Shown one piece after another: positions 4,006-30,051 of a stretch of DNA of 30,051 nt. Location of the stretch: positions 1-30,051 of IMG/VR virus record IMGVR_UViG_3300011337_000119. One strand, written 5' to 3'. Both the position numbers and the translations under genes were made by a program. The DNA is from a virus. Taxonomy: Duplodnaviria; Caudoviricetes. Below the pieces are notes generated by a model, which saw nothing but the letters and a program-made list of their open reading frames with translations, searched no databases and was not told the DNA's origin. The stretch's first letter is position 1. Every line of letters starts with the position of its first letter.

Positions 4006-4504
4006 AAGAAGTTAACTGTTTGCCTTTTGCACATCTAATTATTGCAGAACGTTCAAAACCTTTTTTATGTGCATCAGTTATACATTCCCATTTTTTTACA
4101 AAATTACCATTTAAATCATATTGAAAAATCAATTTATTTAATTTTTTAGTTGTTTTCTTTAAACCTAATTTAAAAGCGTGTCTTTGATTATCTCCCGCAC
4201 TTAACCACTCTAAATTTTCTACCCTATTATCAGTTTTTATGCCGTTTATATGATTTACTTGTGCCAAGTTGTTAATATTTGGTAAAAATGTATTTGCTAT
4301 AATTCTATGTAAAAGAACTTGTTTACGACAAACACTTACATAACAATATCCATTCATAATTGATGGATTTATTATTTTAGATTGATATGTTCTTTTTGTA
4401 GACTTACCTGTTACCCAAATTCTATTTTTTCTTATTACATTTCCTAAATTAGATACTTTTAAGTATTCTTCATAACCTTTGGCATCTTCCCAAATTTCTT
4501 TCAT
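3980..4504 (-). CDS. NUMOD4-HNH-NUMOD1 homing endonuclease
   Basis: EIWEDAKGYEEYLKVSNLG (NUMOD4), HRIIA...VNHINGIKTDNRVENLEW (HNH), QYDLNGNFVKKW...GYLWKY. Confidence 0.9.
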   Translation of the reverse strand: MKEIWEDAKGYEEYLKVSNLGNVIRKNRIWVTGKSTKRTYQSKIINPSIMNGYCYVSVCRKQVLLHRIIANTFLPNINNLAQVNHINGIKTDNRVENLEWLSAGDNQRHAFKLGLKKTTKKLNKLIFQYDLNGNFVKKWECITDAHKKGFERSAIIRCAKGKQLTSYGYLWKYE

Positions 4505-4604
4505 AAAATAAAAAAGGCTATCAAAATCAGCATAGTGAGATTACGCATCATTATCAAGCCTAATAAGTACAAATATTGGATATCTCACATCCACTACAAA
4601 TTTA
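4505..4604 (-). promoter_or_regulatory. Promoter TAAATTTG plus structured 5' leader (kissing-loop candidate) of the HNH gene
   Basis: TGGAT-GTGAGAT-ATCCA hairpin; GCGTA-ATCTCAC-TATGC hairpin inside an AGGCT/AGCCT stem followed by a T-tract. Confidence 0.7.
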
Positions 4605-4607
4605 CAA

Positions 4608-4805
4608 TTACTTTTTCAATCTGACAACACAAAGTCTTTCTTTATACTTGTATCGTTTTTTGTTTATTGGGTTCATATAAGTCATTATGGTTTTGTAATC
4701 AGTTCCTAAAAACCTTATTGCCTTTGCTATTGATCTAAACTCTACTTCCTCTTTTGTATCTAAATAAATCAGTCTAACCTCTATGTTGTTGTCTATTCCT
4801 GTCAT
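4608..4805 (-). CDS. Small NUMOD1-like DNA-binding protein
   Basis: EFRSIAKAIRFLG motif. Confidence 0.6.
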   Translation of the reverse strand: MTGIDNNIEVRLIYLDTKEEVEFRSIAKAIRFLGTDYKTIMTYMNPINKKRYKYKERLCVVRLKK

Positions 4806-4921
4806 CTCAATAATCGTTTTAATTCAAAGTACAAGTGTGCAGTTAAATAAATGCAACAAGCTAATGGAACGCTAAATAGCATAAACTTTACTAATTCGTA
4901 AATAAATGTTAGTGTTTTCAT
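4802..4921 (-). CDS. 39-aa membrane peptide (not in ORF track)
   Basis: MKTLTFIYELVKFMLFSVPLACCIYLTAHLYFELKRLLR; ATGA overlap with the next gene. Confidence 0.55.
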   Translation of the reverse strand: MKTLTFIYELVKFMLFSVPLACCIYLTAHLYFELKRLLR

Positions 4922-4927
4922 AAGTTT

Positions 4928-4991
4928 AAAAAACCACCCCAAGTTCCCCAAATCACTATCTTGTTATTAAATATATAATTTCTTGAGGTGG
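4928..4991 (-). terminator. Long terminator/attenuator-like hairpin
   Basis: CCACCTCAAG/CTTGGGGTGG stem followed by T6, immediately after the stop at 4992. Confidence 0.6.
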
Positions 4992-5717
4992 CTATAATTT
5001 GTTTTGTAAAAATAGGTACAAAGTATATCTTTTGCACTCATTTTTGATAAATAATTCATTATTTAATTTCTCCAAGTCTTTAGGTGTTTTAGCCTGTACC
5101 TTATAATGTGCTATAATTTTTTTCTTTATCTGGTCTGCTTTCTCTTGACTTATGTTTTCTTTGTTCAGTTCCTTTCGTTTCCATAGTATGTCAAAAGCCA
5201 TCGTATTAAGCAACTCCCATCCTCTTTTAGCCGACTTCTCCCAATTTTCGTACAATGCCTCAATAACTTCATCATCTTGTATTTTAGGTATTTCTACTGG
5301 TTGTGGTTCTATATAGGTCTTTTGTCTTACTTGTAAAGCTATCGGTTTATAAGCTGCCATCACATCGCCAAAGAATTTAGGGGTAAACATAATCGCTTTG
5401 TCAACTGATAATTTGCCCATTGCGTAAAGTTCAAAAGCTACACCAAGTTCCTTTAGTTTATAATTTCCGTAATTCTTAATAACAAATTCGCAAAGAAACT
5501 GGAACAACTCAATAGTAGGAGTTTGACATCCGCTTAAAGCAATACAGGTTTTAAGGTGTTCTTTAACCTCAATAGGTGAGCATCTTCCGATACTCATCGT
5601 TTCTAATGCAACTGCAACCATTAATTCATCGTTATCTAATTTAGTGTAAATTTCTAAGGGCATCCCATTCTCTTTCACTAAAATTTGGTTTGTGATTGTT
5701 GCTAATTCCTGTTGCAT
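4992..5717 (-). CDS. Hypothetical protein, possibly replication accessory
   Basis: 241-aa ORF overlapping the replication initiator; function inferred from position only. Confidence 0.6.
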   Translation of the reverse strand: MQQELATITNQILVKENGMPLEIYTKLDNDELMVAVALETMSIGRCSPIEVKEHLKTCIALSGCQTPTIELFQFLCEFVIKNYGNYKLKELGVAFELYAMGKLSVDKAIMFTPKFFGDVMAAYKPIALQVRQKTYIEPQPVEIPKIQDDEVIEALYENWEKSAKRGWELLNTMAFDILWKRKELNKENISQEKADQIKKKIIAHYKVQAKTPKDLEKLNNELFIKNECKRYTLYLFLQNKL

Positions 5718-6480: not shown

Positions 6481-6675
6481 TCAATTAACCGAATATTGTG
6501 CCACTTGTTTCTTGTTTTTTAGCTTAATAATGGTAGTTTTTATGTTCATACCATCGTTTCTTAGGTCAGCTATTCGTGCTGCTAATCTAAAGCATCCGAA
6601 CTTGTTTAAGGCATCAATAGGGGTTAATTTGCGACCTTTATTTAGGTAGTTTGCAATTTGTTGGTTTTGGCTCAT
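6481..6675 (-). CDS. Small winged-HTH protein
   Basis: LTPIDALNKFGCFRLAARIADLR motif. Confidence 0.8.
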   Translation of the reverse strand: MSQNQQIANYLNKGRKLTPIDALNKFGCFRLAARIADLRNDGMNIKTTIIKLKNKKQVAQYSVN

Positions 6676-6681
6676 AGTTGG

Positions 6682-7665: not shown

Positions 7666-7908
7666 TTAATCGTTTGAGTAGTTTTCAAATTGTTCGCACC
7701 AAGTATCCATTGGTACAAAAGGAATTTGTTTAAAATTATGTTTAGGTTGCTCTAATAAATGTGGCATATTATCACGCTTAAAAGCCTTTAATAATTCCTT
7801 TGCACTATTGACTTTCTCATAGGCTTCTTTGGTGTTTTTTTGCTCATAAATACCTTGCCAAAACCAAACATTAGTTCTTAAACTTTCTAATTTGTGATAG
7901 ATGTTCAT
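7666..7908 (-). CDS. Hypothetical protein
   Basis: 80-aa ORF with ATGA overlap on bet. Confidence 0.7.
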   Translation of the reverse strand: MNIYHKLESLRTNVWFWQGIYEQKNTKEAYEKVNSAKELLKAFKRDNMPHLLEQPKHNFKQIPFVPMDTWCEQFENYSND

Positions 7909-8621
7909 AGTGTTTCTTTTTTCTTGGTAAATAATTTAGTTACATCTTTAGTTGCAAGTTCCTGATTCAAGGTATAAAGTTCAGCTAATTCGTTTGTGCT
8001 TATGCATAGATCAATAGCTAACTCTAAATCTTCAAGATTATCGTGCGTTTTAATATAGGCTGGTTTGTCATCGCTTTGTGCCATTTCATCGCCTGTGTAA
8101 AGTCCGCTTAAATCTTGTGGGTAAGCCTTTCTTAAAGCTAATGCCTCTGCAACTTTAGAAAGCATTGTATGTGGCATCTTCGCCCATAAACCCATTGGTT
8201 TACCATCGTTTGTTCTTTGGCAGTATTCATCCCAATAAGCTATTCCAACTGCTGCTTCATACCTTGAATCTCCGTGAAATCTAAATACTGATACTTTACA
8301 AGAAATTAATTTTCCATCTTGTTCTACAAAGATTGGTTCGCTTTGTCCACCATAGTTTCCGCTACGTTCTGCGATTACTCGGAAGCCGTCAATACTTGTT
8401 TGGATAGTCATTTTTTTAGTCCATCCGTTTTGTGTTTTAACGTTCCTGTGGATGCAATAAATCTGCCTTGATAACGCATCGAGTCCTGTGCGTTGTGCTT
8501 GGTAAAGAAATAGCTTTAGTTCATCAACTGTTGCTTCTGGAGCAATCTGCGATTTTACTAACTCTACTTGGTCTTTCGTGTACGAAAGTTGTGGCTTTTT
8601 AGCCAGTTGTTGTTCGTTCAT
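7905..8621 (-). CDS. bet: Bet/RecT-family single-strand annealing recombinase
   Basis: ELKLFLYQAQRTGLDALSRQIY, SIDGFRVIAER, WAKMPHTMLSKVAEALALRKAYP. Confidence 0.92.
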   Translation of the reverse strand: MNEQQLAKKPQLSYTKDQVELVKSQIAPEATVDELKLFLYQAQRTGLDALSRQIYCIHRNVKTQNGWTKKMTIQTSIDGFRVIAERSGNYGGQSEPIFVEQDGKLISCKVSVFRFHGDSRYEAAVGIAYWDEYCQRTNDGKPMGLWAKMPHTMLSKVAEALALRKAYPQDLSGLYTGDEMAQSDDKPAYIKTHDNLEDLELAIDLCISTNELAELYTLNQELATKDVTKLFTKKKETL

Positions 8622-8640
8622 ATTGGTTGGTTTTAGAGTT

Positions 8641-8672: not shown

Positions 8673-9110
8673 TTAAACAAGCACATTTAAGTTGAAAACG
8701 TCCTTTTTTATGGTATCATCGAACTTATTTGACAATTGTCCTTTGATTTTTGAGATTGAGTGTAAAACTGTGGTTCTATCCCTATTAAAGATTTGTGCTA
8801 TTTCCTCGCCATTTAAGTTGGTCTTTTCTTTAGTCAAATACATTGTCATTTGCCTTGCCAAAGTAACTTCTTCGCCTCTATATTTTGACATTAATTGTCC
8901 GTACTTAATCTGGTAGTAATTGCACACTTTTTCGGCTATTTCTATTGCGTACTCCTTTTGTTGTTCTTTGTCCATTCTTATTGTTTTTATGTTTAAATGT
9001 TTATCTAATAGGTCTTTTAACCTGTTTATTTCTTTTTTAAGTTCTTTGTTCTTATCTCGCAAAACCTCTATTTCAAGTTCTGCCATATAGGTTTTATGTA
9101 CTTCTCTCAT
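8673..9110 (-). CDS. Coiled-coil plus DnaA C-terminal-like HTH protein
   Basis: VCNYYQI...LMSKYR...ARQMTMYL...IAQIFNRDRTTVLHSISKI resembles DnaA domain IV. Confidence 0.85.
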   Translation of the reverse strand: MREVHKTYMAELEIEVLRDKNKELKKEINRLKDLLDKHLNIKTIRMDKEQQKEYAIEIAEKVCNYYQIKYGQLMSKYRGEEVTLARQMTMYLTKEKTNLNGEEIAQIFNRDRTTVLHSISKIKGQLSNKFDDTIKKDVFNLNVLV

Positions 9111-9643: not shown

Positions 9644-9772
9644 CTAAATGTTTTGAAGGATTGCGGTAATAATAAATGCGATGCATACAATGATAAATGC
9701 ATACATAGGTTTGATTGAATCGGCTTGGTAGCGTTCGTTTGCTTTTTGTTGTGGTGTTTTTAACTTGTTCAT
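9644..9772 (-). CDS. 42-aa protein with C-terminal TM helix (not in ORF track)
   Basis: MNKLKTPQQKANERYQADSIKPMYAFIIVCIAFIITAILQNI. Confidence 0.65.
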   Translation of the reverse strand: MNKLKTPQQKANERYQADSIKPMYAFIIVCIAFIITAILQNI

Positions 9773-9924
9773 ATTGGTTTTATTTGATATCCTAAAGAAA
9801 TATATTTTTCTAACTTAAATACTAATAATGATTTGTCAAATTCATTAAATTGATTAACTGGAAGTAAAATAGTAATCCAGTCAGTAGTTGTACCTTCTTT
9901 GTAAATTTTAAATGCTTTTTTCAT
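9769..9924 (-). CDS. 51-aa hypothetical protein, first gene of the early operon (not in ORF track)
   Basis: MKKAFKIYKEGTTTDWITILLPVNQFNEFDKSLLVFKLEKYISLGYQIKPI; ATGA overlap; promoter just upstream. Confidence 0.65.
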   Translation of the reverse strand: MKKAFKIYKEGTTTDWITILLPVNQFNEFDKSLLVFKLEKYISLGYQIKPI

Positions 9925-9944
9925 ATTGCTTTTGGTTTAGAACT

Positions 9945-9952
9945 CAAAGATA
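9945..9952 (-). promoter_or_regulatory. Early promoter -7 element TATCTTTG
   Basis: Consensus TAnnTTTG 20 nt upstream of ATG 9924; TTTG at 9975..9978. Confidence 0.65.
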
Positions 9953-10004
9953 GGGCAAAACCTTATAACTTTATCAAACAAGGCAATTATTTTCTAAAAT
10001 TGTG

Positions 10005-10289
10005 ATGAACGGCAAATAATATGGTATGAATGGTATAATTTGACTTATATGGGACTAATATGTATCAAAAAGTGCGTTTTTTGACACATTATTGTACGAA
10101 TAAGTGACACAATTTTACGTTTATATGCATGAAATATTAGAAAAATTCATGCAGTCTTATATGACTAGTTAGATAAGACTATCTGACTAGTTATTATAAT
10201 TTAGGTACAACAAGAGTTTATAATTTTGGTAAAAGTAGTAGTTTTACTACCTTTTATGAGCGATAAATGAACTTTTTATGAGCGATAAA
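10005..10289. repeat. Array of abutting, mutually unrelated direct- and inverted-repeat sites
   Basis: For example TTTTATGAGCGATAAA x2, TAT[A/C]TGACTAGTTA x2, TTATAATTT[A/T]GGTA x2, TGCATGAA-N12-TTCATGCA. Confidence 0.75.
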
Positions 10290-10350
10290 AAACCCCTAAC
10301 CACATTGACGTTATGATTAGGGGTAGAACCTTGTTCAGTTGTTTTTCAGA
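10287..10350 (-). ncRNA. Candidate small RNA 1
   Basis: TTTG(10382..10385)-N20-TAATTTTA(10354..10361) promoter; 12-bp hairpin plus T6 terminator; no ORF. Confidence 0.5.
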
Positions 10351-10386
10351 ATGTAAAATTAATAACTTTAAATAATACTAACAAAT

Positions 10387-10442
10387 AAAAAACCCCCACT
10401 ATGGAAATAGCGAGGGTTAAACCTAAGTTAAACCAATATGAA
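10387..10442 (-). ncRNA. Candidate small RNA 2, antisense to early-gene start codons
   Basis: TATCTTTG at 10446..10453; 5' seed TTCATATTGGTTT; 10-bp hairpin plus T6. Confidence 0.65.
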
Positions 10443-10456
10443 AGCCAAAGATATAT

Positions 10457-10522
10457 AAAAAAAGCAACTTTTTATGGTTGCTTTGTGTGTAACGTTCTGG
10501 TAGCTATCTCCAAAACTCTACG
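10457..10522 (-). ncRNA. Candidate small RNA 3
   Basis: TATATTTG at 10526..10533; GCAAC/GTTGC hairpin plus T7; no ORF. Confidence 0.55.
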
Positions 10523-10536
10523 ATGCAAATATATAT

Positions 10537-10564
10537 AAAAAACCCCACCTTTTTAGGGGTGAGG
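10537..10564 (-). terminator. Intrinsic terminator ending the late/lysis operon
   Basis: CCTCACC/GGTGGGG stem plus T6, 16 nt after the stop at 10581. Confidence 0.8.
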
Positions 10565-10580
10565 AACTATGAACGAACAA

Positions 10581-10850
10581 CTATTTAGAACCATCTTGTA
10601 ATGGTGTATCATTAGAATTATCAACCCTTCTGTAACCTTCTTTCCAGAGAATCTTACATAAAGTTACGCTTTTATCAATAATTGCATTTTCATCGTCCAT
10701 TGGGTTAAGTATATGTAAACACTCGTGCAATAGAATTTCAAGGTGCTTCTTGCCCTTTAAACGAGAATCTATTATGACAATACCATCACTCTCGGCAATG
10801 CCGTGTGCTTGTTCTCTGCCAAGTTTACGATATTCTATTTTAATCTTCAT
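10581..10850 (-). CDS. Small HExxH metallopeptidase-like protein
   Basis: IIIDSRL...EILLHECLH. Confidence 0.7.
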   Translation of the reverse strand: MKIKIEYRKLGREQAHGIAESDGIVIIDSRLKGKKHLEILLHECLHILNPMDDENAIIDKSVTLCKILWKEGYRRVDNSNDTPLQDGSK

Positions 10851-11031
10851 CTTTTAATAAAGCTAAATCTGGTCTATCAACCTCTTTAAATATAAGTTTC
10901 TCGCCACCTCTGATCTTACCTAATGTGGTTTTAATCTCTTGTTCTAAGTTGTGCAATTCAATTAGTTTAGCAACCAACCATTGTTCTTGTTGTAGTGAGT
11001 TCAATTTTGCAAAGTTTTTAGGGTATCTCAT
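10840..11031 (-). CDS. Hypothetical protein (start revised to MRYPKNF)
   Basis: ATG 1 nt after the stop of 11033..12073. Confidence 0.65.
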   Translation of the reverse strand: MRYPKNFAKLNSLQQEQWLVAKLIELHNLEQEIKTTLGKIRGGEKLIFKEVDRPDLALLKDED

Positions 11032-25516: not shown

Positions 25517-26608
25517 CTATACGTTACCTAAGTCAGCGTAGATTGCAGAAGTAGTCAACATTAAGTTAATGTCTTCGTAACACTCAATACGAGCAGTTAC
25601 CAAGTTCTTTTGGAAGTTTTCGCCATTCTCATAAGAGAACTCGATAGCTAAACCTTCAACTTCAACTCTCTCTAAGTAGCTATTATCAAAGATTAATACT
25701 TTGTCATCAGTTACCCAAGATGCAGCAACAACTGGTACACCCCAGATTGTGATTCCGCCATTAGGGTTTACGATAACACTACCAGAACCAGCATAGTAAC
25801 CAGCAGCGATAGTTGCTTTCAATAAACGAGCCATTTGTAATTCAGACACTAAAGCGTAAGAAGCTACAAAGTTTGCTTGCTTTTGGTTTGCGATATAATC
25901 TACTAATTGTAACAAATCATTAGTTTCAGCAGTTGTTGTAGAACCTGTTGCAGCACCAGACACAGTTGTGAAGAATGCAGCGTTCTCAGCCTTGAAGAAA
26001 TCTCTTTGTAACATTCTTGGTAAAGTTTGAGTCATAAAAGGTAATGACTTTAACATTTGCTTAGAGAAAGTAGAGAAACCAGCTAAGTAGTCATTTACAA
26101 CTTTAACTTCAGTCAAAGAGTAGTTGTTCTCACCTTTGTTAGAACCTTCTGTTTGAGCAGAGATGTTGTTAGTCAAACCGCTATTCTCACGATAGTAAAC
26201 ATAAAGACCGCTTTCGCTTCTTACAGTTGGAATCAAATCACGGAAGTTTAAACTTTGAGAAGGTTGGATAGCTGGATTTGGAGCATAAGATGCTTGTGCA
26301 TCACCAGTTAAGTTGCCACTTAAAGTCATAGTCTTAACGTCAGATAAATCTAAACGATACTTACCATTGTTCTTCAAAGATTTTTCCATTGCATCGAAAT
26401 TGCCATCTAATTTTTCTAAGATAACTTCATCGATGAATTTTACTTCTTTCTTAGCAGCTTTCTTTTGTGCAGCTAATTGTCCGTCAATTTGTTTTTGTAA
26501 CTCGTCTTTTACAACAGTTACTTGTGCAGCCACCTCTTTAATTTGGGCTTCTGCATTAGCTTGAAAACCTTTAAGGTTCTCTGCCATTTCGTTGATTAAA
26601 TTTTCCAT
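25517..26608 (-). CDS. Major capsid protein, HK97 fold
   Basis: Coiled-coil delta domain, FRDLIP, EGSNK, IWGVPVV, FQKNLVTARIE. Confidence 0.93.
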   Translation of the reverse strand: MENLINEMAENLKGFQANAEAQIKEVAAQVTVVKDELQKQIDGQLAAQKKAAKKEVKFIDEVILEKLDGNFDAMEKSLKNNGKYRLDLSDVKTMTLSGNLTGDAQASYAPNPAIQPSQSLNFRDLIPTVRSESGLYVYYRENSGLTNNISAQTEGSNKGENNYSLTEVKVVNDYLAGFSTFSKQMLKSLPFMTQTLPRMLQRDFFKAENAAFFTTVSGAATGSTTTAETNDLLQLVDYIANQKQANFVASYALVSELQMARLLKATIAAGYYAGSGSVIVNPNGGITIWGVPVVAASWVTDDKVLIFDNSYLERVEVEGLAIEFSYENGENFQKNLVTARIECYEDINLMLTTSAIYADLGNV

Positions 26609-27357: not shown

Positions 27358-27379
27358 ATAACAAAGTTATTAATTTTTT

Positions 27380-28632: not shown

Positions 28633-30004
28633 TTGGTAATGTTAAAGGTTGGAAATTATCAGGTGGTTGTAAACTTGAAGGGATGTAAAGTTTTTCCATT
28701 TCGTTTTCGTCTATGTAAGGTGGAATCTCTAATCCCATTATATCCATCTTTTGCTTAGGTGCAATCCACCAAGCCTTATCTAACCATTCTACTTGCTCTG
28801 CTTTGTTAGCTTCTAATTCGCCATAAACACTTGCATCGAAGTCGACATAAATATCCGTTCCTCTATAACCCCAGTCAGAATGTAGCTTTCTATTTAAGTT
28901 ATCTCTAATACCTGTAAGCAAAGGAATAGCACAACGTAATGTCAATGCTTTCTCGCCTTCTCTTTGGTTGTTGTAAGTCTTATTGTCGCTATCGTTTAAA
29001 AGTTGCGCTGGTACTCCGTAAATATTACAAAGTGCTTTCATATCCCACTTCTCACTTTCAATGATGTCTAATTCAACAGGACTTAATCCGATTTGCTTCC
29101 AGTCTACTTTATAACCACTAACCGCAATTGAATTAAAGTTAGCAGAACCACCTTTCTCACTCACCGCCTTTTTAAGTGCTTGTGCTTGTTGTGTTCCACT
29201 AATAGGATCAAAGCGTTCATCATTCATAAAAAGAACTCCAGCTGGACCACCATTCTGGAAAGATGCAACCGCAGCAGTCTTCGCTTCGTTGGAACGAGTC
29301 AAGTTTTTCGCAGCAGCCATCAATGGAGATTGACCATATAGTTGATTCCCAGTTGTATTCCATTGTAAGTTTATGTATTTATCTTGTAGTACCTCTTGTT
29401 TAGTAAAGTTCCAAAGTGGACCATAGTTCAATTGGTAACCGCTAATAGTTGGAGGAAAGTTTTGAATGTCCGCTAAAACGTACATATATTGAGAAGGTAG
29501 AACGTACATCTCATAAGGTTTGCCGTTATTGTTACCACCTTCAATCATCTTTGCGTAAACGAAAGAGTTACCTGTGATTAACTTAAAAGTACACCAAGCC
29601 TCTACGAAATCGCCAAAGGTATCTTCTTCATTAGGATATTTCAACAACTCGTTTAATCTTGCATCACCTGTGTATAATTCAAATGCCTTCTTGTGTAGCT
29701 TCTCAACGTCCTTCCAGTTCTCAATCTTATCTGGTTGGCTCATTAACGCTTTATATTTCTTTGCTGATGTTTCATCAACTACTTTATAAACGTGGAATGG
29801 AGCAAGTTTTGCTTTATCCGCAATTAATTTAACGATTGAATAAACAATATCATTCGCTGCATAACCATCATTAACAAAGCTAATGTTATCGCCACCTTGC
29901 CAAGTTATTATCCCTTGTTGTATCGCAACTTGTCCGTTAAAAGGAATTTGTGGTAGTACAGTAGATAGTTTTTGTCTTTTACCAAAAAAGTCAAGTAATC
30001 CCAT
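28625..30004 (-). CDS. Portal protein, HK97 family
   Basis: LLKYPN, LITGNSF, YGQSPL, NGGPAGVL, IYGVP, TYNN. Confidence 0.95.
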   Translation of the reverse strand: MGLLDFFGKRQKLSTVLPQIPFNGQVAIQQGIITWQGGDNISFVNDGYAANDIVYSIVKLIADKAKLAPFHVYKVVDETSAKKYKALMSQPDKIENWKDVEKLHKKAFELYTGDARLNELLKYPNEEDTFGDFVEAWCTFKLITGNSFVYAKMIEGGNNNGKPYEMYVLPSQYMYVLADIQNFPPTISGYQLNYGPLWNFTKQEVLQDKYINLQWNTTGNQLYGQSPLMAAAKNLTRSNEAKTAAVASFQNGGPAGVLFMNDERFDPISGTQQAQALKKAVSEKGGSANFNSIAVSGYKVDWKQIGLSPVELDIIESEKWDMKALCNIYGVPAQLLNDSDNKTYNNQREGEKALTLRCAIPLLTGIRDNLNRKLHSDWGYRGTDIYVDFDASVYGELEANKAEQVEWLDKAWWIAPKQKMDIMGLEIPPYIDENEMEKLYIPSSLQPPDNFQPLTLPNE

Positions 30005-30051
30005 TATATATGAATTTAAAACAAAGTTAGTTATTTTATACTAAAAAACAG
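28813..30051. repeat. Terminal direct repeat, copy 2
   Basis: Colinear with 1..1239. Confidence 0.95.

Follow-up and report, generated by a model that had tools for sequence, protein, structure and literature searches.

Tandem elements antisense to early-gene start codons in phages of probable Bacteroidota hosts: candidate small RNAs for early-gene control

A 30,051-base virus record, analysed over its whole length (the window), carries a short element (unit A) that is perfectly complementary to the start of the early recombinase gene bet. Unit A is rather probably the seed of a small antisense RNA that would block translation of early genes. Its complementarity and conservation, its covariation with the start of an HTH_39 winged-helix gene, its linkage to the bet start, and the either-or occurrence of two promoter-like motifs were established directly.

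Unit A in its genome setting

Every recognised gene of the window lies on the minus strand. The record termini overlap by 1,239 nt (94.8% identity), with the portal gene present at 1-1239 and again at 28813-30051, so the underlying genome is likely to be circular and about 28.8 kb long, with sequence of two strains joined in the assembly. Many gene starts are preceded by TAHHTTTG motifs; this is the -7 promoter element of Bacteroidota (available part of PMC6847099), which points to Bacteroidota as the host phylum. The unit A site is the junction between the end of the late operon and the beginning of the early operon, whose -7 element (TATCTTTG) lies at 9945..9952 (-). Seven TAHHTTTG sites (30029, 27369, 25448, 18978, 13850, 6479, and 2741, all (-)) lie just ahead of the portal, protease, tail, lysis-region, replication, and small terminase genes. 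No obvious -33 box accompanies them; an activator may be required, and the HTH_39 protein is a candidate for that role. Directly upstream of bet, a stand-alone DnaA C-terminal DNA-binding domain is encoded (8673-9110 (-), Pfam Bac_DnaA_C 2.9e-21), preceded in the protein by an N-terminal coiled region. The stretch 10090-10285 is variable and AT-rich, with several palindromes and a 12-nt direct repeat, and one piece of it is inverted in L081, L075, and others; it is possibly an origin or a mobile patchwork.

The last ORF of the late operon (10581..10850 (-), 89 aa) contains an HExxH motif; no Pfam or PHROG family was found for its product, which also gave no match among INPHARED phages. The unit A seed, GUUGUUCGUUCAUAGUU (10565..10581 (-)), has the G of the TAG stop of this ORF as its first base and is followed by the intrinsic terminator T1 (10537..10564 (-), stem 10564-10543 plus U tract), which is common to unit A and the late operon. 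As the first-pass annotation had stated, the spacer from the stop to the terminator stem (10580-10565) is 16 nt long, and the minus strand at 10581-10568, GTTGTTCGTTCATA, is identical to the plus strand at 8609-8622. These 14 nt are perfectly antisense to U-AUG-AAC-GAA-CAA-C at the start (-1 to +13) of the RecT/Bet gene (7905-8621 (-), Pfam RecT 4.7e-30), both elements being on the minus strand.

The length of the match alone is not unusual, given that the window has 19 exact inverted matches of at least 13 nt, six of them of at least 14 nt. Perfect antisense of at least 14 nt across one of the 46 AUGs was found for 4 of the 30,034 minus-strand 17-mers, all of them in unit A, and was reached by 15 of 200,000 shuffles (45 of 100,000 with CAT held fixed); chance is therefore excluded for the position of the match on an AUG. 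No site in the window forms a more stable predicted duplex than the bet start (-21.0 kcal/mol), and the seed is unpaired in the short RNA form, with a predicted opening cost of 0.2 kcal/mol. The putative antisense role on start codons proposed from the outset is thus borne out at the level of sequence, in that the 14-nt match across the AUG lies beyond chance and unit A is conserved and covaries with the HTH_39 start.

Two further candidates were rejected. The letters GTTCATAGT do recur at 7903-7911, as had been noted for the gene start at 7908, but as a target this 80-aa gene is window-specific (relatives mostly start otherwise; covariation p=0.88). For a tiny plus-strand peptide (MNEQLFRTIL), the distance from stop to CAT is 9, 15, 16, 17, 18, or 19 nt among relatives, so that the linker shifts by one or two bases and there is no reading frame; U tracts on the minus strand only also exclude it.

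The cassette and its targets among relatives

Relatives were collected by four scans, with the 89-aa protein or one of three related proteins as query, which gave 162 loci (163 including the window). GTTGT..TCATA after the stop, followed by a terminator, was found in 135 of the 163; in the other 28 it is absent or the sequence ends too early. The letters of the T1 stem differ among relatives, and the pairing, judged by eye, is kept. After T1 the cassette continues in the order -7 promoter element, second anti-AUG stretch (unit B), and second terminator. A pattern scan (27 loci, mostly on contigs present in the set before) and a Bet scan (42 loci) entered only the pooled counts (296 loci; promoter pattern). 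In L120, L123, L125, and L150-L162, which have no unit A, the stop of the 89-aa ORF is followed by a different conserved element, which has a long-stem hairpin, and then by genes of another type. In L346, whose contig is too short for the HTH gene, the seed variant GTTGTTGGCTCATA makes the usual G-U pair with ATGAGCCAA into G-C.

By sequence comparison, the family-wide covarying target of unit A is the start (AACU-AUG-AGC, 6670..6679 (-)) of the HTH_39 winged-helix gene (6481..6675 (-), 64 aa, Pfam HTH_39 4.5e-15), directly upstream of the replication initiation gene. The matches of its predicted model (pLDDT 91.5) in a fold search have the winged-helix fold, none of them at E<=0.001; a PDB sequence search gave 0 matches, and an Atlas search returned only HTH_39 clusters. 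In the window, the last 10 nt of the unit A seed pair with this start, with one G-U; the duplex is weak (-14.1 kcal/mol) and ranks 8th in the genome scan.

For comparison of targets, genes were called and grouped into families, and seeds were compared with start regions. Nine clades, mutually related, were defined by unit A sequence, and one mis-called bet start was dropped. Cognate pairing exceeded non-cognate pairing for HTH_39 (-19.0 vs. -16.9, p=0.0003); the effect was weaker for the recombinase (-17.1 vs. -15.1, p=0.0097), a 56-aa gene (p=0.011), and a metallophosphoesterase (p=0.013). Across the 26 families tested against unit A, HTH_39 alone survived correction, which the recombinase failed. 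HTH_39 was not clearly first in L101g (median rank 4, 2 loci) and L113g (median rank 5, 13 loci).

An out-of-sample set was drawn from 80 loci fetched by a distant HTH_39 protein alone, 34 of which looked divergent and were inspected; 20 were used. Those set aside were two contigs already in the set, ten loci whose short upstream sequence showed no cassette, and L214 and L217, where the start is of the AGGAG type and a cassette was likewise not seen. The upstream gene end is missing from one of the 20; 14 have a TCATAG seed, and five are of the L188 type. Ten of the 14 TCATAG loci show a perfect 13-17-nt match to the HTH_39 start; HTH_39 ranks first in 10/14 (the others 2, 3, 4, and 5), compared with 6.5% for shuffles. 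Cognate pairing beat non-cognate pairing in 17 non-redundant pairs (p=2e-5) and within the 14 (p=0.0015 and 0.0008). Paired changes in seed and HTH start, single-base ones in the first two cases, were seen as AGTGG with CCACT (L216, L227), AGTTGT with ACAACT (L206, L215), and AGTG with CACT (L138), and the new metagenome locus L364 has a 15-nt match to HTH_39 (read by eye). Seed and HTH start region are both altered in the five L188-type loci, where HTH_39 ranks 2-3. Recombinase starts of the MNE/MND type were in the top two in 4/6 loci, which favours the first-pass annotation; MPLL.. proteins had been mislabelled bet via a C-terminal match, and their recombinase ranks were not counted. The unit A of L188, L189, L190, L194, and L196 has no anti-AUG CAT; it makes a 10-nt pairing with the start region of an MTKQTT.. 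gene and also pairs with the HTH_39 leader or codons 3-6.

Alternatively, the seeds could be complements of a start region generic to Bacteroidota, with host mRNAs as their main targets and the phage matches as by-products. They are U/G-rich complements of A/C-rich starts, other phage starts (e.g., those of MKTAMQ genes) also pair, and one bacterial MAG gene start (L186) matches the unit B pattern. However, covariation is with specific phage genes and includes single-base indels, CAT-fixed shuffles seldom rank HTH_39 first, and one match in 596 Gb is by estimate about the chance level; action mainly on host mRNAs is accordingly considered very unlikely. The single pattern match in GTDB genomes was an unrelated bacterial gene start.

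The preference of unit A between its two phage targets follows a C/G site in the seed, as judged by ranking about 29 gene starts per locus in loci with both bet and HTH_39. With the G allele, HTH_39 is first in 25 of 26 loci and bet is in the top two in 26/26; with the C allele, bet is first in 35 of 37 and HTH_39 is in the top two in 28/37. Five of these 37 + 26 loci have HTH_39 alleles that barely pair with unit A. Of 70 loci with bet, 64 are non-redundant; in these, C is combined with AAC-GAR in 37/40 (other starts in 3) and G with AAC-GAA in 1/24 (other starts in 23). The bet start (codon 2) is the segment most strongly linked to the site among 4,194-5,123 compared (r2 0.70-0.76); the runners-up give a background r2 of 0.59-0.66, so population structure contributes to this linkage. 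The C/G site itself has the strongest long-range linkage of the 83 polymorphic sites near the cassette (next 0.58), and 15 new metagenome loci replicate the linkage (5/6 vs. 0/9). The C allele pairs with AAC-GAA at -20.8 and more weakly with HTH_39 (-13.9 vs. -20.2), and the G allele reaches about -17 whichever bet allele it meets. The combination of C with AGC-GAA has a predicted -20.8 but was observed in 0/42.

Outgroups have G-like seeds, so the C allele looks derived, and a single G-to-C change appears to have made bet, instead of the winged-helix gene, the best-pairing start in the lineage of the window. The preferred reading of the linkage is that selection has favoured bet pairing in the C lineage alone, although population structure may still confound it. 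The earlier designation of bet as the silenced target therefore fits this lineage, in which bet is the best-pairing start and the top-linked one, but not the family, in which the G allele ranks HTH_39 first and distant clades covary with HTH_39. Strict covariation with bet codons 1-5 was not found: G lineages mismatch every bet allele, there is no compensatory pair, and L191-type relatives combine the ATGAACGAA recombinase start with a different element.

The substantial background linkage would also suit a reading without RNA function, in which the elements are inverted DNA copies of gene starts that arose via recombination or template switching and are linked by descent; the phage does encode a single-strand annealing protein. 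Such copies would, however, have to lie between promoter motif and terminator in every clade, as they do, and to keep G-U-tolerant, bulged pairing, while the promoter motif tracks the presence of unit A exactly. DNA copying alone is thus judged highly improbable.

The small RNA reading extends to unit B (10385..10453 (-)), which consists of a promoter element (TATCTTTG, 10453-10446), a 5' seed (UUCAUAUUGGUUU), and the terminator T2 (10418-10391). It is antisense to the bet start (12 nt, 8617-8628) and to the start of a 42-aa gene at 9772 (13 nt); the overlap, pointed out earlier, of the unit A match (8609-8622) with the bet site of a putative second small RNA was thus confirmed. Pairing of unit B with recombinase starts is much stronger for cognate than for non-cognate combinations (-16.3 vs. 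-10.7 kcal/mol, p<1e-4), and unit B also covaries with the start of a 98-aa gene (p=0.0001). Covariation with the recombinase start is far stronger for unit B than for unit A, and for unit B it holds even with an Erf-type protein replacing Bet (L138). The Bet slot is taken by unrelated proteins in L073:7042-7659 (phrog_19042), L113:12285-12908, and L138:5309-5857 (Erf-type), and the local unit B still matches the start regions of these replacements.

Between units A and B, the window has an extra promoter-hairpin-terminator unit (10454..10533 (-)) that carries TATATTTG, has a hairpin fold z of -4.6, and is absent from the 296 related loci. No start-codon target was found for it, its best perfect match being 10 nt inside the capsid gene (25779-25788); from its sequence it looks like an inserted third small RNA. 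A fourth terminator-ended stretch (10286-10390 (-), stem 10324-10292), also absent from the 296 loci, is without a clear promoter and has a 15-nt inverted match to 27363-27377, a promoter-like motif before the prohead protease gene.

Transcription of unit A

The first-pass annotation had described unit A as the 3' UTR of the late operon, which, as late mRNA or as a processed fragment, would silence bet late; a motif inside the last late gene would then be a cleavage site. In its favour, unit A and the late operon have T1 in common, unit A begins at the stop codon in 150 of 181 distinct ends, bet pairs best in the window, the motif of the window is without the consensus G, and its ACUUU resembles the RNase E consensus, RNWUU. 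This motif, TAACTTTA (10659..10666 (-), inside the 89-aa ORF), has one mismatch to TAHHTTTG and is the likely -7 promoter element of unit A. The RNA predicted from it would start near 10654 and be about 118 nt long, leaving the last 10 bases of the seed accessible (0.4 kcal/mol; 14-mer, 2.4).

Among 205 distinct gene ends, TAACTTTR was found in 150/150 with unit A and no downstream promoter (97 with A, 53 with G as last base), in 0/31 with a downstream promoter, and in 0/24 without unit A, the latter having neither promoter-like motif; these counts reflect few independent events. The 31 ends carry a consensus TAHHTTTG Bacteroidota -7 promoter right before unit A. The full TAACTTTG occurs in 53 ends, and the upstream A of TA is invariant. 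The codons for V/I-T-L in the upstream gene are fixed as RTA ACT TTR; of the 32 degenerate codons only three have an invariant third position, and two of these lie here. In the L113g and L191g clades the consensus -7 element stands after the stop; with the rule of a G at -5 in Bacteroidota promoters (PMC6847099, available part), transcription would start there on the first G of GUUGUU. The internal motif of the window has A in place of this G, which is nearly invariant at -5, and a -33 TTTG was not seen either; with a mismatch at such a position, it may be weak or a processing site.

The either-or pattern of the two motifs makes an own promoter likely, and unit A is, on this evidence, probably transcribed separately and more than a late 3' UTR. 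The 31 ends with a consensus promoter before the seed (the only ones with unit A and without the internal motif), the 53 ends with full TAACTTTG and the invariant upstream A, and the family-wide HTH_39 target all speak against late silencing by the 3' UTR or its fragment, which is regarded as unlikely. The 3' UTR description holds in so far as unit A begins at the stop and shares T1; feedback from the late transcript to early genes was not upheld, since unit A appears to have a promoter of its own. The RNA runs X1, X5, X9, and X12 consist of contigs of strains mostly less than 95% alike and are mute on strand, ends, and level.

Host-type promoters would also suit immunity or superinfection-exclusion RNAs, with A and B steadily made in a carrier state and silencing both resident phage and incoming kin. 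The clade-specific seed/target pairs resemble immunity groups, and the CI RNA of P4 provides a precedent (available part of PMC4825925). Against this, the 20 proteins scanned included no recognisable integrase or repressor, and GTDB genomes yielded no prophage, so an immunity function is held to be rather improbable; the GTDB search likewise gave no Bet relative with close peptide patterns.

Known systems and proposed mechanism

Among the small antisense RNAs with which phages block the translation of a phage regulator are c4 of P1/P7, which acts in trans, and sar of P22, which is cis-encoded. Their targets are antirepressor genes in temperate phages, whereas the putative targets of A and B are RecT/Bet or Erf recombinases and the HTH_39 protein. 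Comparison of window positions 9700-10900 with Rfam 15 (including C4 and sar) gave 12 weak rows, all far below the gathering threshold (for sar, 18.4 bits against a threshold of 43, over a terminator hairpin alone), and L113 and L198 gave 0 rows. Small RNAs derived from 3' UTRs, with an internal promoter or by processing, are a known class, of which CisR is reportedly an example. Unit A is like them in having its seed between the stop codon and the intrinsic terminator of an operon, and unlike them in being phage-encoded and in that sister clades carry this seed as a gene standing on its own; the promoter would thus have moved while the seed stayed.

GibS of Bacteroides thetaiotaomicron is, in the available text of PMC7366714, a trans-encoded sRNA with an unstructured 5' seed across target start codons, for which 30S exclusion was proposed; Bacteroides is described there as having no Hfq or ProQ homologue. 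A and B resemble GibS in phylum and seed type and share with it a promoter and intrinsic terminator around a non-coding unit (by sequence pattern), a predicted single-stranded seed complementary to distant start-codon regions, and seed/target covariation (A with HTH_39 and B with the recombinase; A and bet are linked, not compensatory). GibS is a chromosomal metabolic regulator of about 145 nt, whereas A and B are phage-encoded, about 45-120 nt long, and mirror the phage's own genes. P4 CI is likewise a phage RNA with short antisense pairing on its own replication-related transcript, but it is processed from an untranslated transcript, acts by premature termination, and pairs with flanking seqA and seqC (PMC4825925, as far as available); the predicted targets of A and B are AUG regions 0.8-3.9 kb away. 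A and B would therefore act like GibS, P1 c4, and P4 CI, without the defining features of c4 and P4 CI where these were tested. No description of the A/B element was found in the literature searched (titles and abstract openings, few subscription papers, no supplements).

In the mechanism proposed, unit A would be transcribed by the host polymerase from its own promoter, end at T1, and pair across the AUG of early phage mRNAs, bet being the best target here and the winged-helix gene the family-wide one. Seeds and target sites are predicted to be open, and the predicted duplexes span -4 or -1 to +6 or +13. Initiation in Bacteroidota makes use of a start region that is open and rich in A, has A at -3, and involves no Shine-Dalgarno pairing (available part of PMC6847099); because the duplexes cover this region, they would exclude the 30S subunit and so block ribosome loading. 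Unit B would act likewise on the recombinase and the first early genes. Together, A and B would probably act as a brake made of RNA alone, accumulating in the course of infection, and the likely outcome would be shut-off of the recombinase, the first early genes, and the winged-helix protein adjoining the replication initiator.

Few phage sRNAs have known targets (PMC4933390, 2016, available part); here covariation alone names those of two candidates, within a large natural population. With no Shine-Dalgarno pairing in Bacteroidota, units A and B would show a block achieved by covering the AUG region itself. The natural C and G alleles constitute a ready allele-swap test, the 45-60-nt scaffolds with a 5' seed are possible knock-down tools in Bacteroidota, and the uncharacterised HTH_39 protein is pointed to as a dosage-sensitive regulator. 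More tentatively, abundant aquatic Bacteroidota phages could achieve early-gene shut-off or immunity without a protein repressor, by tandem minimal anti-AUG RNAs retargetable by one base, each with its own start class (AACU-AUG for A, CCAAU-AUG for B) and a dedicated promoter that has shifted into the coding sequence upstream. The winged-helix protein may in turn control these promoters and so close a loop.
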